Part shown: piece by piece, positions 49,539 through 61,272 of the stretch
Numbering within the stretch: the stretch's first letter is position 1
Layout: the number at the start of each line of letters is the position of its first letter
Assembly (NCBI GenBank): GCA_963804995.1
Contig: CAWDSK010000003.1
Location: forward strand, 384,001 to 448,000
DNA length: 64,000 nt
Origin: an uncultured Acidobacteriota bacterium
GTDB lineage: Bacteria > Acidobacteriota > Terriglobia > UBA7540
Direction: 5' to 3'
Position numbers and translations under genes: made by a program
Notes under the pieces: model-generated
What the model was told of the DNA's origin: nothing
Databases searched by the model: none
What the model saw: only the letters and a program-made list of their open reading frames with translations

Positions 49539-50090
49539 TCAGGAGTTCTTCCCGGCAGACTGGGTGGCCAAGCGCTTGATGATCATTTCGAAGCGAGCCG
49601 ATGCCAGGGCAATATTCTCCAGGACATCCGCGGGCAGTTCGTCGAGGTCTTCCTCGATTTCCCCTCCCCCGCCTTTCTGGCCGGCGCTCAAGCGGGCAGT
49701 AGCCACGCGAAGACGGTCCGCCAGGAAAGTCGCGAGTGACAGGTAGAACCGCGAAGCAAATCCCAGATCCTTCTGAAGCTTGGCACGGAGCGCAGCCTTG
49801 GGGACGGCCAGGACCTGAGAATCGACCGCGGCTTTGACGCTAGCCGAAGGAGGCCGCGAGTCGACAAACGAAATCTCGCCTACGATTTCGCCCGCCAACA
49901 ATTTGGCAATCTCCACGCCTCCGGAGTAGACCTGGAGTTGCCCATCAATCAGGATAAACACTGAATCGATGGGAACGCCTTGCTGGATGATCACTGCGCC
50001 CGCGCGGATCGCCCGGGCTTTACCCGCATTGGCCAGCCAACTGGCGTCACTATCGTCGAGAATGCCTAAAAAATAGAGCGCTTTTCGCAT
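49539..50090 (-). CDS. Cyclic-nucleotide-binding domain protein associated with NHLP transport cluster
   Basis: GEIVGEISFVDSRPPSASV phosphate-binding cassette; no HTH. Confidence 0.85.
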   Translation of the reverse strand: MRKALYFLGILDDSDASWLANAGKARAIRAGAVIIQQGVPIDSVFILIDGQLQVYSGGVEIAKLLAGEIVGEISFVDSRPPSASVKAAVDSQVLAVPKAALRAKLQKDLGFASRFYLSLATFLADRLRVATARLSAGQKGGGGEIEEDLDELPADVLENIALASARFEMIIKRLATQSAGKNS

Positions 50091-50213
50091 GATTCCTCCT
50101 CAAGAACAGTGGCTAGCGGCTAGTGGTTAGTGGCCAGTAAAACAGTCGCCAAGCCGAAAACTGACAACCGGTTTTCTAACCACTAACCACTGACCACTAT
50201 CCACTGCTCTTCT

Positions 50214-53126
50214 TCAACTGAGCTGCCGTTTCGCTAATTGCGTAAAGAGCCCTCCCTGCGCCATCAGCTCGTCGTAGGAACCCGTCTCCACAAGGGAACC
50301 CCTGTCGAGGACACAGATCCGGTCAGCGCGTATGACCGTGGAAAGGCGATGGGCGATCACGACGCGTGTAGCATTAAGAGTTTTCAGGCTCCGGCTGACG
50401 ACCGCCTGCATGAGATTATCCAGAGCGCTGGTCGCCTCGTCGAACAGGATGATCCGTGGCTTGCGGGCGATGGCGCGGGCAATCAGCAAGCGCTGGCGCT
50501 GCCCACCGGAAAGTCCACTTCCGCCCTCGCTCACCACCGTATGCATTCCCATGGGCATGGCCTTGAGGTCGTCCTCCAGCCCCGCCAGGCGCGCGGCCTC
50601 CCAAGCATCATCGATGGTCAGGGTTCCGTCGCCCACGATATTCCGGAAGATGCTGCCCGTCATGAGCCGCGCATTCTGGAGGACCACCCCAATTTGCCTT
50701 CGTACCGCATGAACATCCAGATCAGCCAGATCCTGTCCGTCGTAATAAATGGCGCCGGAGCCGGGCGTCTCAAAACCCAGGAGCAAACGGAAAAAGGTTG
50801 ATTTCCCACTCCCCGAGGGCCCGACCAGAGCCACAAACTGACCCGAGGAGATACCCAGGGAAAAGTCACGCAAGACCCATGGCCCATCGTTTCGATAACG
50901 AAAATTCACGTGGTGAATATCCAGGGTCCCGGTTAACTCGGGGGGGGCGGTCTGGGTGGTCACGACTTCGGGCAGTGAGGTTAGAATTGGCTTGGCGCGC
51001 TCATAGAGCGGGATGACGTTGAGCACAGAAATCAGGGCGGAACTCAAGTCCATCGCCCCGGTACTGAATTGCACGAAGGCGGCCATGAAGGCCAGGAATT
51101 CGCCAGTCGTCAGCATCGGGGTGTTGGGGTTTTTCATCAGCGCGGTGGCGTAATAAAAGATGACGGCCCAGGCCAGCACGGGGAACGCCGAGTTGAAAAT
51201 CGAAACGAGGTTCGAGATTTTTCGGGCGCGCAAGGCGAGGACTCGCTGTTTCGCGAACTCGCGCGCCCAAACCGCAAAGGCGCGGGCTTCGGTTCCCGCC
51301 ACCCGGAATTTCGCGATACCGTTGATGAATTGCAGCGTGGTGCCGGCAATGCGCCCGCCCAACGCCGACACCTCGCGCAAGATTCTTACTTGCAGCCAGC
51401 CGCAGAAGGTAAAGACCAGGAAGGAACCAAACACCAAGGCGACGGCGATCAAGGCCAGGCTCCAACTGTAGTAGAACATCAGCGCACAGGACGCAATTGA
51501 GAAGATGCCGGTCAGGATGGAAGAGAGCGCGGACCCCGTAAGCGCCTCGCGAATCTGGCTGATTCCCAAACTCCGCCGGGCCAGGTCGCCGGAAGTGAAA
51601 TTGCGGAAGAAGGGTACGGGCAAGGCCAGCAGGCGGTCCCACACGGCCGCCTGAATCGCGGCCTCCATTTTGCTCTGCAGGCGCAGGGTCGCCAGGCTAC
51701 GGGTGAGCGTAAACAATGCCGTTGCCACCGCGCTGATCACCAGGAAAATGCTGAACTCCGCCAGCGCGGAGTGCTGGGCGCCTGGAATAATCGTGTCAAA
51801 AATAATGCCCGTAAAGACCGGCGTGGCAATAGCCAACAGGCCGGCGGCAATCCCCATGAAAAGGACCGTGGCAGCGTCACCTCCACAATCCCTAAGCCCG
51901 AAAGCCAGAACGTCTCGCAGAGTCAGCGCCTTGGGGGGGAAAGGGCGATAGAAGACATAAGCGAAGCCGTTGAGCTTGTCGGCTAGTTCTCCGTCCACGA
52001 GGGTTTTCACGCGGGTGATGGGATCATAGACTTGATAATTTCCCCGGCCCGGCAACAGCGCCACCGGCCGCTTGTCTTGCTCAAGAAAACCAACCATGGG
52101 CGCGCTTTCCTGGTTCCACCACTTGCCCTTCAGCATCACCTGACGCGTTCTCACCCGGGCCGCCTGGGCGATGGCGCTCACCGGATCTCGCTGTTTGATG
52201 AGCTCCAAGGCGCGAGGCACGAGGGGGATTTGAATGCCGCTGGCGCTGCCCACCAGACGGCAGACTTGAAGCAGAGGATCCAATCCTCCGGTCTCCACCT
52301 CCCAAGGGCTCTTCTCCCCGCCCCGCAACGGCTCGGCGAGTTTGTACAGAGCGGCCTCGAACACATTCGCGTCGGCTTCCGCCACTGCCCGCAAACGCGC
52401 CCGGGATTTCAGCTCATCTCTGCGCAACTGGATCACGAGATAGGCGAAGACCTGTTCCTGGAAATTTCGCAAGCCCGACCACCGCGGGTCAGCCTCCAGC
52501 CACTCTCGCGTATCGAGGCATCCCACTTGTGACTGTGGGGCGCACTTGAGCCAAGCCGTACGGCTTACCGGGAAAAACCTTCCCGCCTCGATCGGCGGCA
52601 TCTGGTCATCACCCAACAGGCTGGAACTTCCTTCCAGGTGACGAATCCATACCACGCCCAGGAGTGGGAGGACAGCCGTGGGCTTACTCTCCACCACGAT
52701 CTCCGCGCCCGGAGCCAATTCCTGGAATTCCTTGGGGGCAGGCTTGTCTGCCACCGCCGAGCCCAGATTCTCCACCCACTTGTCGATGAAGGGCAGGACA
52801 GATTCCGGCGAACCAGCGGCGGCCTGCTGGAGTTGTTTAAGTTGCAGGCAGAGCACCTTCGATCTCACCGCCGCGTTGGCGATCACTCCGAAAGCGCCAT
52901 CGGGCCGCTCGACAAATCCCATCACCGGATTGCCGGCTTCCACACGGATGAAATGATGCCGGGCGCCGGACGGCTCCCCCTCACGCATCTCCACCAAAAA
53001 GAGGTTGAGTTTCCCCTCCAACACCAGCCACATCTTCTCCGGGTCCTGGAGGGAGAGCGGGACCCCGGGGTGCAAATCCAGAACGACCCCTTGCTCCTCC
53101 AGCCGGGTTATTTGCGTGATGTCCAT
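50214..53126 (-). CDS. NHLP-type export ABC transporter permease/ATPase
   Basis: 970 aa; degenerate cNMP-like and peptidase-like N-region, TM domain, [25 protein letters not shown]. Confidence 0.92.
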   Translation of the reverse strand: MDITQITRLEEQGVVLDLHPGVPLSLQDPEKMWLVLEGKLNLFLVEMREGEPSGARHHFIRVEAGNPVMGFVERPDGAFGVIANAAVRSKVLCLQLKQLQQAAAGSPESVLPFIDKWVENLGSAVADKPAPKEFQELAPGAEIVVESKPTAVLPLLGVVWIRHLEGSSSLLGDDQMPPIEAGRFFPVSRTAWLKCAPQSQVGCLDTREWLEADPRWSGLRNFQEQVFAYLVIQLRRDELKSRARLRAVAEADANVFEAALYKLAEPLRGGEKSPWEVETGGLDPLLQVCRLVGSASGIQIPLVPRALELIKQRDPVSAIAQAARVRTRQVMLKGKWWNQESAPMVGFLEQDKRPVALLPGRGNYQVYDPITRVKTLVDGELADKLNGFAYVFYRPFPPKALTLRDVLAFGLRDCGGDAATVLFMGIAAGLLAIATPVFTGIIFDTIIPGAQHSALAEFSIFLVISAVATALFTLTRSLATLRLQSKMEAAIQAAVWDRLLALPVPFFRNFTSGDLARRSLGISQIREALTGSALSSILTGIFSIASCALMFYYSWSLALIAVALVFGSFLVFTFCGWLQVRILREVSALGGRIAGTTLQFINGIAKFRVAGTEARAFAVWAREFAKQRVLALRARKISNLVSIFNSAFPVLAWAVIFYYATALMKNPNTPMLTTGEFLAFMAAFVQFSTGAMDLSSALISVLNVIPLYERAKPILTSLPEVVTTQTAPPELTGTLDIHHVNFRYRNDGPWVLRDFSLGISSGQFVALVGPSGSGKSTFFRLLLGFETPGSGAIYYDGQDLADLDVHAVRRQIGVVLQNARLMTGSIFRNIVGDGTLTIDDAWEAARLAGLEDDLKAMPMGMHTVVSEGGSGLSGGQRQRLLIARAIARKPRIILFDEATSALDNLMQAVVSRSLKTLNATRVVIAHRLSTVIRADRICVLDRGSLVETGSYDELMAQGGLFTQLAKRQLS

Positions 53127-53132
53127 GCGTGC

Positions 53133-55349
53133 CTACACCGCTTCAATCAGCCTCCGGTAGGGGCCGTCCATCCGGATCATTTCCTCATGGGTGCCGCGCT
53201 GCACCACTTCCCCGCGTTCCAGAACGATAATCTCATCGGCGTCGCGAATGGTGCTGAGACGATGGGCCACAATCAGGCACGTGGCCCCCCGCCGGCGCAG
53301 ACTGTCATCCACGTATTTTTCGCTGTAGGCGTCAAGCGAACTGGTGGCCTCGTTGAGAATAAGAATGCGCGGATCGTTGACGAGCGCGCGGGTGATCTCC
53401 AGGCGTTGCCTCTGCCCACCGCTCAGGTTGCGCCCACCCTCTTCCACCCAGAATTCGTAGCCATTGGGAAGGCTGGTAATCTCATCGTGAATCCCCGCAT
53501 CCTGGGCGGCCTGGACCAGGGACGCATGTTCGACGGTGGCGTCCCACATGGTCAGGTTGTCGCGCAGGGTTCCATCGAACAGAAATATCTCCTGGTCCAC
53601 CATGGCAATGGAATTATTCAGCACGCCACGAGGAATGGTGCGGCGCGGCCGGCCGTCGAATAACACTTCACCCGACCACGGCTGATAAAGCCCGGAAACA
53701 ATTTTCGACACGGTCGACTTGCCGCTTCCCGAGGCGCCCACCAGGGCCACGCGCTGCCCCGGCTTCAGGGTCAAACTGAAATTGGTAATCAGGGGCGGTT
53801 CCAAGCGGCTATAGCCAAACGTCACGTCCCGCAGTTCCAGGTGCCCGGCGAGGCGCTCCTCGACGGCAGGGCTTTGTCCCGCGAGAGTGGCAGGCCCAAC
53901 TTGAGGGTCGGGTTGGTATTGGAGCGTATCGTCCAAGCGGCTGAGGTCGCCCTCAATCTCCTGAGTCTTGCTGCCCAGATTCACCAATTTGTTGACGGGA
54001 TCGATGAAGCTGGTCATCAAACTCTGGAAGGCGATGAGCATGCCCATGGTCAGGAAGCCGTTCATCACGCGCAACCCGCCCAAACCGAGCACGGCGGCGG
54101 TATTGAGACCCGTCAGAAAGGAGGGAATGGCCGAGAGGAACACCGAGGACATTCCAAAGCTTTGTCCGGCATTGACGACTTTGGCCTGGTAACCCCCCCA
54201 GCGGGCAAAGAATTCGGACTCTGACGCAGAGGACTTGAGGGTCTCGATGGTCTGCAAGCCATTCACTGACACGCCCAGCAGGCACCCCTGCTCTTGCAGC
54301 AGGTGGCGGTTCTGGTCCACGCGCCGGCGCTGAACAAATCGCAAGGCCGCGATATTAAGCACCGCTATGAGAATGCCGATGACCGTCAGCAGAGCGTCAT
54401 ACTGAAACAGCAAGGCCCCATAAATCCCGATAAGAAGAATGTTGGCCAGATTCGTGGCCACATCCCCGGAGAGCAGGGTTGCTACCTGGTCGTTGAGTTG
54501 CAGCCGCGAGGCGACTTCGCCGGCGTAACGTTGGGCGAAAAACTCAGTGGGCAATCGCAGCACGTGCCAGAAAAACTTGGCGGAGGATGTCAGTGCCAGC
54601 TTCATCTCCACGTGCATCAAAGAGTCCTGCTGGAGAAGCGTCAGCAGGGCCTTCACGATCGCCGTGACCGTCATGGCCACCAACAACGGGGTCAGCCAAC
54701 TGGTCAGGCCTCCTACCAGAAGGTTATCGACATAGATTTTGAAAAATACGGGAATCACCAGGTTAGGAATGGCCAGGCCCAACGTGGCGAGCACGAGATA
54801 CAGGAGGGCCAAACGGCTTCCCGGAAGGCGCGAGGCCAGCATCTGGAAGACGCTGGGCTTTTCCCCACCCTTCTTAAAAGTGGGTTCCTTCTCGAAAACC
54901 AGGACGACGCCGGTGAAGGACTCATCAAACTCCTCATCGTCCACCCACCGGCGGCCCTCGGCCGGATCGTTGAGATAAACCTTTTTGTCTCCGAAGCCCT
55001 CCACCACCAGAAAGTGGTTGAAGTTCCAGAAGACGATCAGGGGCAGCGGCAACTCGCGCAGTTGCGCGGGTTCCTTCTTGTAGCCTTTGGCTTTCAGGCC
55101 GTAGGTGCGCGCGGCCTTCAGCATGTTGCTGGCTTTGCTGCCGTCGCGCGAGACGCCGCAAGCCACCCGCAATTCCTCCAGGGGAACGATTCGCCCGTGG
55201 TAGGCAAGGATGATCCCCAGCGCGGCGGCCCCGCACTCCACCCCTTCCATCTGCAATACCGTGGGAGTCGTTACCCTGCCACGGCGCAGCAAATGAGCGA
55301 GCGACTTGTGAGCCGGGACCGGTTTGGGATCGATGGCAGTTGTACCCAT
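53133..55349 (-). CDS. NHLP-type C39 peptidase-containing ABC transporter
   Basis: [17 protein letters not shown] (Cys), FNHFLVV (His), [20 protein letters not shown]. Confidence 0.95.
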
Positions 55350-55401
55350 GGGTTACTCTGGATTTCTTACTGGGCTTTCGCGTTTTTACACGGTTGCTCA
55401 A

Positions 55402-55508
55402 CACCACCCCGGCGCCCGGCGCGCCACCCCTCCTCATCTGAGGAGGGGAGTCCCGTAAGAACTCCCCTCCTGATTCAGGAGGGGTGGCGATCAGAGCGCC
55501 GGGGTGGT
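55402..55508. repeat. Long palindromic element between adaptor and peptidase-ABC genes
   Basis: ACCACCCCGGCGC..CCCCTCCTC..GAGGAGGGGAG / CTCCCCTCCTG..GGAGGGGTGG..GCGCCGGGGTGGT. Confidence 0.7.
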
Positions 55509-55627
55509 TATTCTCTTTACCACCTCCGCCAGGGTGGTTACACGCGGCGGAGTATTCTTCCGCAGCCTCTGAAGCTCAGCAATATGCAGCCAACAACTGC
55601 TTTCCGCCTACTGCCTTCTGCCCTAAG

Positions 55628-56881
55628 TTAACTCAGCCCAAGTTTGCCTTTGAAGAAGGGGAGCAGCAGGCTCACCGGCGGTTGCCGGCGTGTGATCACC
55701 TGCACGGTTGAGAGCGTGCCGCTGCTGATGGTAATCGCCGGGCCCCGGGACGACGACCACTTGAATCCGCTCAAGCTACTGGCATCGCGCTCCAATGTGA
55801 CTCTTACTTCCGTCACGGGGCCGCCCGCCATAATCGAGCGCACTAACGTTTCGTTTTGAAAATTGCGCATCAAGGCGTCGGAGCTGGCGGGAAACTCACC
55901 GACGTAAACCACTTTGCCGCGGATAAAACCAAACTCCTCGCGCTTAACCGTGGAAGGAGATATTTCCGCCTCCATCCCCGGCTGCACGGCCTTGGCTTGA
56001 AGGGAGGGCAGATAAACCAGCACCTCCAGGGTATTCCCCTGAGGCTGGATGCTAAGGATGGGACTGCCCGCAGTAACCAGAGTGCCCGGCACAGCCTTCA
56101 TCTCGATAACCTGGCCCTCGTAGGGACTTACGACGCTGGATTGTATGGCCATCAGGTTTTCCAGGCTCGCCAGGTTCCGCCCCAACTCCGAGATGTGCTC
56201 TTCCGCGTCCTCTTTGAAGTGTTCCGGATCGGTCCGCGCTGCGAATTGATCCGCGTCAATGCGTTTGAGTTTTGCCCGGTCAGTTTCGATTTGACCCTTG
56301 AGCTCAACCAGGTGCTGCTCATCCTGAAGCACCTGCTGCTTCGTAACCAGCCCTTTGGCAAGAAGTTGATTGTCGACCGTGATTTGCTCAGTCGCGATCT
56401 TTACCTGATCTCCGACCTCCTGGATTTCCCGCTCCGTGTTCACCCTGTCACGCGCCAGCGCGTCCACTTGGAGTTGGGCGCCTTTCTGGCGCGACCCGAT
56501 ATTGCGCTGTAGGTCTTCTTTCGCGTCGTCGAGGGCGGCGCGCGCCGTGCGGATTCTTTCCAACATCTGGGGATCCGAAACCCTGGCGACCAACTGATCG
56601 GCTTTTATCCGGTCCCCCAGATTAGCCTTGATGTCTGTCACCAGCCCCGGACCCGAGGTGACGACGTTCAAGACGGTTCCGGCCCGCACGATGACTCCGG
56701 AGCCGCTCACCTTCGTAGCGATGGTCCCCGCATAGCCCCAAACCATGGCGACACCCAGAATGAGAAACATTCCGGCCAGCGCCAGCCATCGCTTCGCCCC
56801 GGTTACCCGCATGATGGTGTCAAGCTGTTCCGGGGAAGACAGCCGCTCAAGGGAAGCTTTTCGGAAGATACTGGTGTCCAT
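55628..56881 (-). CDS. NHLP system secretion adaptor (HlyD family)
   Basis: IFRKASLERLSSPEQLD, STVKREEFG, GFKWSSSRGP, PVSLLLP. Confidence 0.93.
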   Translation of the reverse strand: MDTSIFRKASLERLSSPEQLDTIMRVTGAKRWLALAGMFLILGVAMVWGYAGTIATKVSGSGVIVRAGTVLNVVTSGPGLVTDIKANLGDRIKADQLVARVSDPQMLERIRTARAALDDAKEDLQRNIGSRQKGAQLQVDALARDRVNTEREIQEVGDQVKIATEQITVDNQLLAKGLVTKQQVLQDEQHLVELKGQIETDRAKLKRIDADQFAARTDPEHFKEDAEEHISELGRNLASLENLMAIQSSVVSPYEGQVIEMKAVPGTLVTAGSPILSIQPQGNTLEVLVYLPSLQAKAVQPGMEAEISPSTVKREEFGFIRGKVVYVGEFPASSDALMRNFQNETLVRSIMAGGPVTEVRVTLERDASSLSGFKWSSSRGPAITISSGTLSTVQVITRRQPPVSLLLPFFKGKLGLS

Positions 56882-56887
56882 GTTATT

Positions 56888-58498
56888 TCATTCCTTCCCG
56901 GCCGGCGGTTTGGGAGCAGCCGGAACGGGAACGGTGTAGAAAACCTCGCAATCGACCGATTGCACGGTCTTATCCGGTTCGACGATCGAGCCGGTGGCGA
57001 AGCGCAACTGGGTCAGTGCCAGCGCATAGCCGAGTTCAGCGTTCACCTGGTCTTGCTCCGCTTCCGTCAGCCGGTCCTCCAGCGTCAACACATCCACAAG
57101 CTTCCCCTGACCCAATCGATACCTATCGCGCTCGCCTTCCAGCGCCTTCTGGGAAGCGACCGCAGCCTCCCGCACTCTCTGCAACTGGAGCGCGGCGTTC
57201 CGTACGCCCCCCACGGCTGTCACCACGGAAGCCATGATGGATTCGGACGTTTGGAGGGTGTGAAGTTCCGCCTGGCGAAGGCCGGATTGTGCCAGCATCA
57301 ACGCTCCGGAAGCGGCATTGTTGCGGGGCGGAAAGCGGTAGGTGACGCCTACACCGGCGTCCGGTCCATGCATGGAGCGTCCGGGAGCGCTGAGATAGTC
57401 ACCGAAGCTGCTGCCCAAGTCGATGCTCGAGTACCCCGTGTTCAGGTTCAGATTGAGCTGGGGCAAGAGGCCATTCCTGGCCGGCACGAGCAGGGCTTTT
57501 TGTTCTGTTTCGCGCTTCTTGGCTGCCAGGTAATCCGCGCGGCCCTGGAGCGCCAAGCTGAAGAACTGTTGCAGCGAATGGGCATTCAGAACGGCCAGGG
57601 CATGGCCATCATCGATCGGGAATTCCTCCATTGGCATTCCCACGTCTGCCATCTGGTCGACGGTTAAACCCATGGCCAGGGCAAGTTGCTGGAGTGCCGC
57701 GAGGAGGTTCTGCTCCGCCGCGATGCGCGCCGCTGACCGGGTGGCCAGATTGGCGTTGACCTGATGGATTTCAGCCTGCGCCACACGCCCCGCGTCAATC
57801 AGCGTCTGGACGTTTTCCACGTAAACCTCGCCGCGCGCTTCGGATTCCTGAGCCACCTTCAGGCTTTTCGCTGCGCCCACGGCATTCCAATAGCTGGAAG
57901 CAGTAGTCGACAAGAGGCTGCTGATGTTCTGGTTGAGGTCCAGCAAACTGGCCTCAACCTCGATTCCCGCCGCGGTCTCCGAAGCCGCCACTACGCTGCG
58001 CCCGCGCCCCCGGAGCAGCGGTACGGTCACTTGAAATGCCAGTGTGGAGAGATTGGTGCCCCCCAGGTTGTAGAAGTTGTCCGTGGTCCGGGTGGTCAGG
58101 AGGCTCGGGCTGATCGTCACACCATTGCGGTATTCCTTGCTGGCACCGATGTCCAGAGTCGTCAAGTTGCTGACATCGTTGCTGATCATGAGCCCCACGA
58201 TGCTAGCCTGCCCCCGGTCGTAGAAATTAAGAGGAGTGTTGATGCGATTCTGAGAAAGGGTGGTTTCAAAGACCGTGTCGAATAACCCGGTCGCCTGCCG
58301 GACCGCTGCCCGGCTGGCAACAACTTGCTGTTCCTGAATATGCAGGGCGGGCTGGTTCGCGAGGGTCGATTGCAAAGCCTCCACCAGGCCCAGCGGCTGG
58401 GAAGGAGGTCCGCTGGACTGGCCGAAGGAGCGCAGGCAACAAACTAGTAGAAGGGATCCGACAGCGAGTGCCGACCGCCGGCACTGCAAGCTGTTCAT
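56888..58498 (-). CDS. TolC family outer membrane channel
   Basis: Signal peptide, VPLLRGRG, LLPQLNL, ERDRYRLG; 6 bp from adaptor gene. Confidence 0.88.
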   Translation of the reverse strand: MNSLQCRRSALAVGSLLLVCCLRSFGQSSGPPSQPLGLVEALQSTLANQPALHIQEQQVVASRAAVRQATGLFDTVFETTLSQNRINTPLNFYDRGQASIVGLMISNDVSNLTTLDIGASKEYRNGVTISPSLLTTRTTDNFYNLGGTNLSTLAFQVTVPLLRGRGRSVVAASETAAGIEVEASLLDLNQNISSLLSTTASSYWNAVGAAKSLKVAQESEARGEVYVENVQTLIDAGRVAQAEIHQVNANLATRSAARIAAEQNLLAALQQLALAMGLTVDQMADVGMPMEEFPIDDGHALAVLNAHSLQQFFSLALQGRADYLAAKKRETEQKALLVPARNGLLPQLNLNLNTGYSSIDLGSSFGDYLSAPGRSMHGPDAGVGVTYRFPPRNNAASGALMLAQSGLRQAELHTLQTSESIMASVVTAVGGVRNAALQLQRVREAAVASQKALEGERDRYRLGQGKLVDVLTLEDRLTEAEQDQVNAELGYALALTQLRFATGSIVEPDKTVQSVDCEVFYTVPVPAAPKPPAGKE

Positions 58499-58828
58499 CG
58501 GGGTAATTTTCTCCTGCTGATCTTGGTGGTTATACAGCGACCGCTTATAAGTCCGCTCGGTTTCCTGGGGTGGGGCCGGCTCGCAGCCAACCTCTTTCAG
58601 GCCCACTCATGACGTGGGCTATCATTCCTGCTTCTGTTTTCCTGAGGCCTGAACTACTTTCTACGTTACGCCGCCACAGGCCCAGCTAACGCAAGGTTGT
58701 AGGGGTACGACTTGCCGTACCCTTTAAAATTTAATGGCGCGACAGGACCATTAGGGGACAACCAGCCTGTGGCCCTACCATAAGGCAGCACCTCGTGACA
58801 ATTGTCAAAAATTGGGTGCTACAGCGAG

Positions 58829-58946
58829 CTAGGAGCCTGTCGGAGATAGATTTCGTTGTACGTAGAATTAATAACTTAGCGAGATTCGAGTGTCTGTAAG
58901 TTGTTGATTCTTCGTTGACGAATTATTATTTCCGACACACTCCTAG
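58829..58946. mobile_element. 118-bp palindromic MITE-like element with CTAG ends
   Basis: CTAGGAGCCTGTCGGA...TCCGACACACTCCTAG; inner arms AGAATTAATAACTTA / TAAGTTGTTGATTCT. Confidence 0.65.
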
Positions 58947-58955
58947 CCTCTGTCC

Positions 58956-59084
58956 CTAAAAGAACTTGATCCCGCCGGACGCCTTCTCCAAGTCCTTGTC
59001 CGTGAGCTCGTCCTGCTTGTCCCAGACAGGCTTTGTGGCTTCCTGGTTCGTCTGGATCATCTTTTTTTCTTTCTCTTCTGCCAT
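58956..59084 (-). CDS. Double-glycine leader precursor peptide, 42 aa, predicted core IKFF
   Basis: Not in ORF track; MAEEKEKKMIQTNQEATKPVWDKQDELTDKDLEKASGGIKFF*; AAGAGGAG RBS upstream; heads the C39 export cluster. Confidence 0.85.
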   Translation of the reverse strand: MAEEKEKKMIQTNQEATKPVWDKQDELTDKDLEKASGGIKFF

Positions 59085-59784
59085 CGGGGCTCCTCTTTTT
59101 AGATAGGCTGAAACGATGATGCCACTCAAACTGTAAATGCAAGTATTGTCAGTCTACTTAGCTAACCACCGCTGGAAATACGAACAGCCCCCCCACAATA
59201 TGTCCGAAGTTTAGCACCAGTGGGAGAGGAGTCAAGTCCAAAATTCACATGGAACCGGCAAGTAGTCACGATCCTGCCGATGGCTCGGAATACCCATTCG
59301 TATGGCGAGGCGGCGCAAAGCCTTCGATCTCAAGAATGCCTCTGGAAATCAGTCCCGCGATCATGCAGGCAAACTCGGCGGGGCCCTGAGCAAAAGGTCC
59401 AGAAATTTGTCACAGGGACTTTGCGGTAGAAGGTCAAGAAATTCGTGGGTGAGAGGGTGTATCGCCGGAAAGACATAGTCTTTCGATTTTGGTGAGCCGT
59501 CGGGACTCTTCCACCGAGCAGACAAATCGTCCGTACTCCCAATCTGACCCGATGATGGGAAACTAGCCCCCTGTGTTAGTCATTCCTGTGTTAGTCATTA
59601 GGGTATTGTCAAGGACTGGTTACCTTAAGCTGCTGCTTCGGACGTCAATGTGCCATTGTCCAAAATTAGAACACCTTTCGCTGCGACTTATTTTGCAGGA
59701 TCAATCCAATTTTGCGACAATTATTGGGTTCGCACCCTTTTGCGTGCGGACAAACCGGCTGTACACTAGACACCACGGAGCTTT

Positions 59785-61272
59785 ATGAGCAGGAGGCCAA
59801 CTGTGCGCAACTTATTGAGAACTGTGGTATGGCATGGATTCTGCCCTCGCCTCACCCTCGGCCTTATTTTTGCCGCGTGTCTCGCGCTACCTGAAATGGT
59901 CGTGGCTCAAGCCCCCCCAGCCGCCACCACTCCTGACTTCATAGGTCAGTTAAGCCGCTCGTCGGAGGCGCTGGTCAAGAAGGTGGCGCCGAGCGTCGTC
60001 CAGATCATGGCCATTGGATACGGACCTCTGCAGGAGAGCAGCCAGACTGAGACCGGCCTGGTCATCGGCCGCCAGCGCGCCATCGGTTCGGGAGTAATCG
60101 TTGACCCGGACGGATACATCATGACCAATGCCCACGTGGTTAGTGGCGCCCGGCGCATCCAGGTAGTCATCAACGCGGCTGACGCCGGAGGATCTCCCGC
60201 CCGCGCCTTAGCTTCGCACGGGACCACCCTGGAGGGCCAAATCGTGGGAATCGCCCGCCAGATTGACCTCGCTTTGATCAAGGTCGAGGCGCATGGGCTT
60301 ACGGCGCTGCCCATTGGCGATTATCGGAAGCTCCTGCAAGGCCAAATCGTTTTTGCTTTCGGAAGCCCGGAAGGCTTGCGCAACTCCGTGACCATGGGTT
60401 TGGTGAGCGCCGTGGCTCGCCAGCCCGATCCCGACAACCCGATGATCTACATCCAAACCGATGCGGCGATTAATCCTGGAAACAGCGGCGGACCGTTGGT
60501 GAGTGTTGAAGGTGAATTGGTCGGAATCAATACGTTCATTCTGACGCAGTCCGGCGGCAACCAAGGATTGGGATTCGCGATTCCCAGCGGCCTCGTGGCC
60601 CTTGCCTACCCTCAACTCCGCAAATACGGCCACACCCATCGCAGTCAAATTGGAGTGTCGGTGCAGACCATCACTCCGGCTATGGCCGCTGGCCTGGGTC
60701 TTTCCCGAGACCAAGGTGTCATCGTTTCGGATGTCCTCCCGGGGGGACCCGCGGACGGCGCTGGACTGAAGATCCAGGACATCATCGTGAGCGTGGACGG
60801 TCGCCCCATCGACAGTCTGCCGATGTTTGGCTATTGCTTCTATTTGCATCATCTGAGTGAACCGATGAAGCTTGATGTGCTGCGCGGCTCCACTCCCATG
60901 CATTTTGAAGTGCCGGTCATCGAGCAACCCCACAAGGTCGACCGGCTGATTGATCTGGCCAACCCCGAAAAGAACCTCATCGCGAAGCTGGGCATCCTGG
61001 GCATTGAGGTCAACAAGAGCCTTGCCGATTTGTTGCCGGACCTCCGGCAGTCTTCCGGAGTCATCGTCATCGCGAGGGCCGCGGAGTCAGGCTTTTCCGC
61101 GACTTCCCTCGCTACCGGGGATGTCATCCACGCCATCAATGGCCTGCCCGTGATCAGCCTGGCGTTCTTGCGATCCCAATTGGAAAGCATCAAACCCGAC
61201 GAGCCGGTGGTCCTTCAGATCGAACGCGAGGGCGCCTTCACGTACCTCAGTTTCCAGATGGAAGCACCGTAG
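59785..61272 (+). CDS. HtrA/DegP-like serine protease with two PDZ domains
   Basis: TNAHVV, DLALIKV, QTDAAINPGNSGGPL. Confidence 0.93.
   Translation: MSRRPTVRNLLRTVVWHGFCPRLTLGLIFAACLALPEMVVAQAPPAATTPDFIGQLSRSSEALVKKVAPSVVQIMAIGYGPLQESSQTETGLVIGRQRAIGSGVIVDPDGYIMTNAHVVSGARRIQVVINAADAGGSPARALASHGTTLEGQIVGIARQIDLALIKVEAHGLTALPIGDYRKLLQGQIVFAFGSPEGLRNSVTMGLVSAVARQPDPDNPMIYIQTDAAINPGNSGGPLVSVEGELVGINTFILTQSGGNQGLGFAIPSGLVALAYPQLRKYGHTHRSQIGVSVQTITPAMAAGLGLSRDQGVIVSDVLPGGPADGAGLKIQDIIVSVDGRPIDSLPMFGYCFYLHHLSEPMKLDVLRGSTPMHFEVPVIEQPHKVDRLIDLANPEKNLIAKLGILGIEVNKSLADLLPDLRQSSGVIVIARAAESGFSATSLATGDVIHAINGLPVISLAFLRSQLESIKPDEPVVLQIEREGAFTYLSFQMEAP

Follow-up and report, generated by a model that had tools for sequence, protein, structure and literature searches.

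The locus analysed here raises the question of why a large peptide-export machine should stand beside a precursor gene whose predicted cargo is only four residues long. It occupies positions 49539-59084 of a 64,000-nucleotide stretch of contig CAWDSK010000003.1 (the window), from the genome of an uncultured Acidobacteriota bacterium (G000; 7.55 Mb, 92% complete), and consists of five co-oriented exporter genes and a small double-glycine (GG) precursor gene ending in Ile-Lys-Phe-Phe (IKFF). An earlier reading of the letters without database searches (the sequence-only reading) had proposed a complete system exporting an unmodified signalling tetrapeptide. In the present study, the locus was assigned, with a probability of about one half, to a different kind of system, namely a reduced copy, partly decayed and probably acquired by horizontal transfer, of an exporter of peptide libraries whose products are likely mimics of Hcp. 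Hcp is the tube protein of the T6SS (type VI secretion system), a bacterial injection weapon. The exporter is already known; the precursor family with Hcp-copying cores is uncatalogued, and no literature account of it was found.

The precursor gene is almost certainly real. Translation of positions 58956-59084 on the minus strand gave 42 residues, a 38-residue leader followed by the core, with the C-terminal end ELTDKDLEKASGG-IKFF, and the gene has the ribosome-binding site AGAGGAG, which agrees with the strong site and the peptide end reported earlier. The leader carries L(-12), D(-8), L(-7) and G(-2)G(-1), as do 195 leaders of the family described below. It follows the substrate consensus of peptidase-containing ABC transporters (PCATs), L(-12)xxxE(-8)L(-7)xxxxG(-2)G(-1), set out in passages of PMC6959990, with Asp in place of Glu at -8; D(-8) is present in 82% of family leaders. 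In a six-frame search of the whole 7.55-Mb genome with a strict leader pattern, the IKFF precursor was the sole match, and with the family leader matrix it scored 48, compared with a maximum of 21 for reversed-ORF nulls (ORF, open reading frame). The IKFF end is very probably genuine as well. A separate Logan contig (2,498 nucleotides), possibly from the same sample as the window genome, encodes a 34-residue version with the identical IKFF end and stop; among the matches listed, no contig from three sequencing runs bridged the IKFF stop, and the sequencing runs listed included no RNA data for the locus. The core contains no Cys, Ser or Thr and thus lacks the Cys/Ser/Gly-rich character of NHLP/N11P cores. 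No curated family matched the precursor over its cut-off, TIGR03793 and TIGR03798 gave no match at E<=0.5, and an Rfam scan of 58400-59900 matched nothing. A sigma-70-type promoter-like site, TTGACT-16-TAAACT with an extended -10, lies at 59208-59235 on the minus strand; one such site was found where 1.0 is expected by chance, so it is weak alone, and of 47 upstream regions examined across the precursor family, 9 hold a similar TTGAC...GCTA site, among them those of the IKFF gene and of a paralogue on contig C5. A longer alternative reading frame was ruled out as a hidden core because it reads into a 118-bp miniature inverted-repeat transposable element (MITE) inserted 9 nucleotides after the stop; with that starting point, truncation of the core by the MITE was also ruled out. 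These data support the ORF as a genuine short-core substrate gene, and cleavage of its leader behind Gly-Gly is predicted to set IKFF free.

This gene and its relatives form a large and uncatalogued family. From loci across relatives, the close ones labelled Terriglobia, 44 precursors were collected, and one to four short precursors precede TolC in 5 of 15 loci, several other loci ending at a contig edge. Profile searches returned 296 and 444 matches, of which 120 and 150, respectively, were taken in, and clustering left 209 distinct cores with a median of 11 residues; the counts for the second core set exclude 12 polyproteins with several leaders and 11 proteins that the motif pattern did not pick up. 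The cores are 3-50 residues long, stand in tandem arrays where they are interchangeable, and are hypervariable within one genome. The sequence-only reading had named uniformly long cores among homologues as telling against it, and this is not what was seen: 13 of the 209 cores have five residues or fewer, and five have four or fewer (LRI, LRF, IVRY, FNHL and IKFF). Cys, Ser and Thr are all absent from 50 cores and Cys from 166. With curated precursor models, none of 43 family members exceeded a cut-off, and 14 gave weak TIGR03798 matches (best E 0.018). The arrays of relatives are flanked by a PF05175-type methyltransferase, often with a TPR-GT41 glycosyltransferase. Other array enzymes are SET, JmjC, radical SAM, LanM and YcaO-TfuA proteins, LanM occurring in some relatives together with Cys-containing cores, and some cassettes show no enzyme in view (L137, L157, L159). 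By eye, SET-domain proteins in two arrays (L023:1714-2439 and L032:177-860) start with a segment resembling the N-terminal part of a leader subtype of about 50 residues. Polyproteins of 3-10 repeated leader-core units were also seen (P0126, P0133, P0186, P0189, P0234), several with a recurrent NHNET motif.

Two more family precursor genes were found in the window genome itself, with leader-matrix scores of 30 and 25 against the null maximum of 21. In the C5 paralogue (G000:C5:564989-566032, L171), the leader is split by a 909-bp IS5-like insertion sequence (IS) that has perfect inverted repeats of 18 bp and has duplicated TAA; the leader is in frame with the six-residue core VQPIDY, and the DNA upstream resembles that of the IKFF gene. 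The orphan on contig C2 (G000:C2:232866-232994, L172) encodes 42 residues with the 11-residue core FNPQPDPPGRS. A related core, LNPQPLPP, occurs in P0027, and no literature on either motif was found. With the family leader matrix, no long-core GG substrate in the genome scored above null.

That cores of this family match Hcp is as close to certain as any claim made here. In a comparison with Hcp proteins of acidobacteria (34 sequences), 19 of the 118 clusters of cores scored better than every one of 200 shuffles and 200 decoy protein sets (P=0.005), and 11 of 91 passed in a second, non-overlapping core set. Moreover, 37 of the 209 cores passed with an Hcp profile, whereas the reversed profile, under an identical rule, let through 0 of 209; the matching cores cover 147 of 163 Hcp columns, and nine start exactly at Hcp residue 2. 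When 184 cores were compared with the 7,891 predicted proteins of this genome, the two best matches were Hcp (E ~1e-5) and the rest lay near shuffle level. The producer's own Hcp ranked only 7th-72nd of 75 for 11 cores (of 14 taken, three were put aside, one for a parsing error and two for want of an own Hcp), foreign Hcp types being closer, in a ranking that covered part of each producer's Hcp genes; synonymous codons were mostly scrambled. Recent DNA capture from the producer's own hcp is thus unsupported, and retention at the protein level is suggested. Furthermore, a complete hcp gene lies within one cassette (L002), one precursor lies directly before vgrG (L022), and paralogues of the array methyltransferase occurred, without precursors, in 6 of 6 T6SS-adjacent loci examined. 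[quoted passage not shown]

Around the T6SS genes of the genus, loci L109-L114 carry PF05175-like methyltransferases, several right after a VipA-VipB fusion gene, which suggests modification of T6SS parts. L109 has an additional PF10119/PKMT-like methyltransferase, and in the window genome a TPR protein with a weak GT9 match adjoins a VipA-VipB fusion (G000:C6:328600-332200, L173).

Several observations weigh against Hcp mimicry, both for the family and for IKFF. Most cores fail the Hcp test (172 of 209), and in some the likeness is to other motifs, namely Flp pilin (E 0.00025) and H-X9-DG (E 0.047). The query alignment included a few Hcp-like cores, and a slight retrieval bias is possible. 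T6SS is near-universal in the genus (Hcp 25/29, VipB 25/29), and its co-occurrence with the family is therefore uninformative. Hcp assembles in the cytoplasm, and we know of no uptake route by which peptides would reach it there. For IKFF itself, derivation from an Hcp fragment found no support: the shuffle/decoy test gave P=0.86, the reversed profile scored 9.6 compared with 5.7 for the forward one, and of 75 Hcp genes no more than 2 contain IKF. Cores of eight residues or fewer are borderline as a class (forward better in 34 of 60, P=0.056). Since four residues are too short to give any power, IKFF cannot be shown to be Hcp-derived, and such an origin is doubtful. Pilin-like cores were seen in L035, P0111, P0146, P0241 and P0087, with the Flp N-terminus matched by Pfam, and LLPAV and VQKVRES may reflect the DUF1559 prepilin motif.

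The exporter genes lie on the minus strand in the co-oriented order proposed by the sequence-only reading. They encode a TolC-family outer membrane channel of 537 residues counted from ATG (56888-58501; PF02321, E 9e-33, below the TIGR01844 cut-off), an HlyD-like NHLP secretion adaptor (55628-56881; TIGR03794, 315.8 bits, cut-off 156.2), a C39 peptidase/permease/ATPase subunit (53133-55349; TIGR03796, 1083.7 bits, cut-off 853.3), a second NHLP ABC subunit without peptidase and with canonical Walker motifs (50214-53126; TIGR03797, 944.1 bits, cut-off 709.4) and, at the 3' end, a single-domain cyclic nucleotide monophosphate (cNMP)-binding protein (49539-50090; PF00027, E 1.9e-17). With the adaptor and both ABC subunits over their cut-offs, the exporter is, as judged by profile, of the known NHLP type; this trio is described with NHLP precursors in passages of PMC2887384. 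The catalytic Cys39, His112 and Asp128 are all present in the peptidase ABC, as had been noticed for Cys and His, and no other C39 peptidase was found in the genome. Matches to this subunit occurred in 17 of 61 genomes searched. Among the other genomes of the genus, exporter and precursor were both present in 10 of 28, the exporter alone in 2 and the precursor alone in 1, counts in which kin are not independent. The cNMP-binding protein, conserved at the cassette's 3' end in relatives, reached 126.4 bits with TIGR03896, under the cut-off of 161.05, covering only model positions 139-317 (the C-terminal half). FHA-domain proteins adjoin the cassette in 4 of 31 loci (L156, L158, L160, L167), one of them with an adenylate/guanylate cyclase domain, a possible source of ligand for the cNMP-binding protein.

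The export system is not complete as had been written, for the peptidase ABC carries an Asp-to-Asn change in Walker B (D666N, codon AAC, 53352-53354, minus strand) that is private to this genome. The canonical hhhhD motif is thus absent from this subunit and present in the second ABC; the Asp is kept in 12 of 12 orthologues from genomes and, among metagenome orthologues that extend over the motif, in 22 of 22, two sets that may share some organisms. Because this Asp coordinates Mg2+, according to a passage of PMC8277102, D666N is likely damaging, and no literature passages on a Walker B Asp-to-Asn change were found. On the opposite side, heterodimeric ABC proteins may operate with one good site, as stated in part of PMC7756269.

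Nor does the claim that the window holds no modifying enzyme stand as written. Positions 59269-59522 (minus strand) contain a pseudogene remnant of the array-associated class I S-adenosylmethionine-dependent methyltransferase (PF05175-like), in which the loss of about 310 codons has brought residues 122-166 up against residues 479-514. By tblastn, the remnant matches the 514-residue protein of L001 at 78% and 56%, and its DNA matches L139 and L144, of which L139 keeps the intact order of methyltransferase, one precursor and TolC. No full copy was found in the genome with the L001 query. The idea of a peptide unmodified by design is weakened, because the methyltransferase is deleted here while relatives keep it, often with TPR-GT41. 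Searches of the genome, which is 92% complete, gave no GT41 and no YcaO, and a LanC search gave no match with a positive control that was also silent. A perfect 15-nucleotide tandem duplication lies at 59570-59599, just 5' of the remnant.

The MITE (58829-58946, no strand) is bounded by CTAG and shares its ends with a 1,645-bp DDE insertion sequence; 11 MITE copies and 3 full elements are present in the genome. The parent element has DUF772 and DDE_Tnp_1_6 domains (Pfam), and we take it from this architecture to be IS1182-like. The MITE region folds as one long hairpin between the precursor and tolC (z -5.2). Ten of the 11 MITE copies are intergenic, one contig joins a MITE end to a MITE start with two letters between, possibly a circle or a tandem, and a REP-like palindrome with several genomic copies lies at 58695-58740, between the MITE and tolC.

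In gene trees, the four-fold-site branch to this genome was 0.20-0.32 for the cassette and 1.22 for two housekeeping genes (a third, UGD, lay outside the loci covered; TolC is absent from one cassette tree). The genome is thus far from the others on these two housekeeping genes and close to them on the cassette, which suggests transfer, and the cassette was probably acquired horizontally. The ratio of amino-acid to four-fold change on the cassette branch is raised (0.37-0.54 vs 0.10-0.35). Against decay, this excess is modest, the pairwise ratios overlap (0.40-0.47 vs 0.28-0.44) and all five exporter ORFs are intact. Because these ORFs are open, decay is likely and not proven; taking the methyltransferase deletion, the MITE, D666N and the IS-split paralogue together, we consider it somewhat more probable than the contrary.

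On the biology of PCATs, the following mechanism may be proposed. The leader would dock on the C39 domain, Cys39 would cut the precursor after GG, and the core would leave through the ABC subunits, the adaptor and TolC. In intact clusters, an adjacent enzyme (methyltransferase, GT41, SET, radical SAM, JmjC, LanM or YcaO-TfuA) would presumably decorate the cores beforehand. Hcp-like cores might then act on the T6SS of neighbours, either by posing as the interfaces between subunits or by setting off Hcp sensing without cause. IKFF would in that case be what is left of such a library in its smallest form, no longer modified and with little or no export. A T6SS-directed function of the cores is tentative, with somewhat less than an even chance. 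The broadest form of the proposal, in which peat acidobacteria export libraries of peptides of 3-50 residues tiling the conserved surface of foreign Hcp, along with pilin motifs, as T6SS defence or false alarm, with IKFF among the smallest PCAT cargoes, is rather unlikely as a whole.

The main rival holds that leader genes take up pieces of nearby or common genes, such as hcp and pilin genes, for a diversity-generating RiPP pathway with an activity unrelated to T6SS. The many cores that are not Hcp-like (172 of 209) and the wide variation of the enzymes beside the arrays fit this account, as do cores of the pattern W-I/V-E/D/T, which grade from Hcp-like to unrecognisable (20 of 208, 1.6 expected); moreover, with methyltransferase paralogues in T6SS loci, a shared neighbourhood could explain the donor. 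It agrees less well with the likeness to foreign Hcp types and the scrambled synonymous sites, which suggest protein-level retention, with the nine cores that begin exactly at Hcp residue 2, or with a whole-proteome search in which only Hcp stood clearly above noise, and we regard it as unlikely. The same reserve applies more strongly to the proposal of the sequence-only reading, in which IKFF serves as a dedicated signalling tetrapeptide without modification. Among 258 ORFs of 31 cassette loci, neither a receptor family nor a regulator family was found to be conserved (30 of 93 cluster representatives Pfam-scanned, selected Pfam scans otherwise), the largest recurrent cluster besides exporter and enzymes being the 4 FHA proteins. 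The signalling claim is unsupported for this reason; the cores are also hypervariable within a genome, an exact metagenome scan and a protein search gave no second core starting with IKF, and the locus once had a modifying enzyme. The strong ribosome-binding site and the conserved promoter-like site speak for such a signal, together with the enzyme-free cassettes of L137, L157 and L159 and an aliphatic-basic-aromatic triplet in 11 of 208 other cores (4.6 expected, P=0.005), a pattern chosen post hoc; for HetC, a PCAT of Gram-negative bacteria that likewise has a cNMP domain, a part in signalling is proposed in passages of PMC10986499. On balance, a dedicated signal is very unlikely.

Two further explanations concern the shortness of the core. 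A slip of one base in the T run, whether in this lineage or during assembly, may have shortened a core that was formerly longer: the stop follows a T4 run, a T run in the adjoining pseudogene is one T longer than in L139 and L144, and loss of one base would give an eight-residue core ending at the MITE target site, a typical length beside the median of 11. Since the second assembly gives the same end, the neighbouring long genes are unbroken and other genomes have cores of 3-5 residues mostly without homopolymer ends, a slip is highly improbable. The remaining suggestion makes the ORF a regulator or competitor that consists of a leader only, with its true cargo encoded elsewhere. It could draw on the rarity of cores as short as IKFF (5 of 209 have four residues or fewer) and on the two further family genes in the genome. 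Those genes are themselves short-cored, with one split by an IS, which makes this suggestion unlikely; with no long-core GG substrate above null, and with syntenic L139 carrying one normal precursor in the corresponding place, it is scarcely credible.

The decayed peptide-library exporter is thus the reading that we prefer, and its interest lies mainly in the family; the locus is real and probably not the best example. Because of its lesions, it is a poor model, and the intact arrays L001, L140 and L144 are better. A cargo of 3-5 residues would probe the lower size limit of peptidase-containing ABC exporters, and the family appears to be a collection of Hcp fragments made by nature, each supplied with its own tag for processing and export. 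If the cores act on T6SS, they would represent a new form of interbacterial counter-weapon and ready leads for T6SS inhibitors; if they do not, RiPP pathways would recruit fragments of structural proteins as cores.

Among known systems, GG pheromones of the ComC/BlpC type have a cognate sensor kinase or regulator beside the precursor, unlike the present family, in which no conserved gene of either kind stood beside precursors in 31 loci. The nearest likeness is to the NHLP/N11P three-gene export cassette as described in passages of PMC2887384, with all three transport genes over cut-offs and a leader ending in GG; the precursor here, in contrast, falls below TIGR03793 and TIGR03798, cores span 3-50 residues and mostly lack Cys (166 of 209), no YcaO was found in this genome, and many family cores copy Hcp. 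Compared with PCAT1/CtA and the class II bacteriocin and pheromone GG systems covered in part of PMC6959990, the leader consensus (with Asp at -8) and the Cys/His/Asp triad are shared, whereas the exporter here is a heterodimeric ABC with adaptor and TolC, the cargo has four residues, the Walker B Asp is lost from the peptidase subunit, and no receptor or immunity gene was found. RaxX of Xanthomonas, described in 10.1101/442517 as an enzyme-modified mimic of a plant hormone that a PCAT (RaxB) processes and secretes, is likewise a Gram-negative GG precursor whose product mimics a molecule of another organism. It differs in being a single plant-hormone mimic, while arrays of many cores with a bacterial structural protein as their apparent model occur here; its dedicated modifying enzyme has its counterpart in a deleted methyltransferase remnant at this locus and in methyltransferases present in relatives. 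Finally, a designed biomimetic cyclic peptide blocks T6SS baseplate assembly in culture (PMC8406304); it is synthetic, is aimed at TssK-TssG and not at Hcp, and is no evidence for natural Hcp-like cores, yet it illustrates that a short copy of a T6SS interface can inhibit T6SS in culture. RaxX and this peptide may thus serve as partial precedents for mimicry of the kind proposed here.

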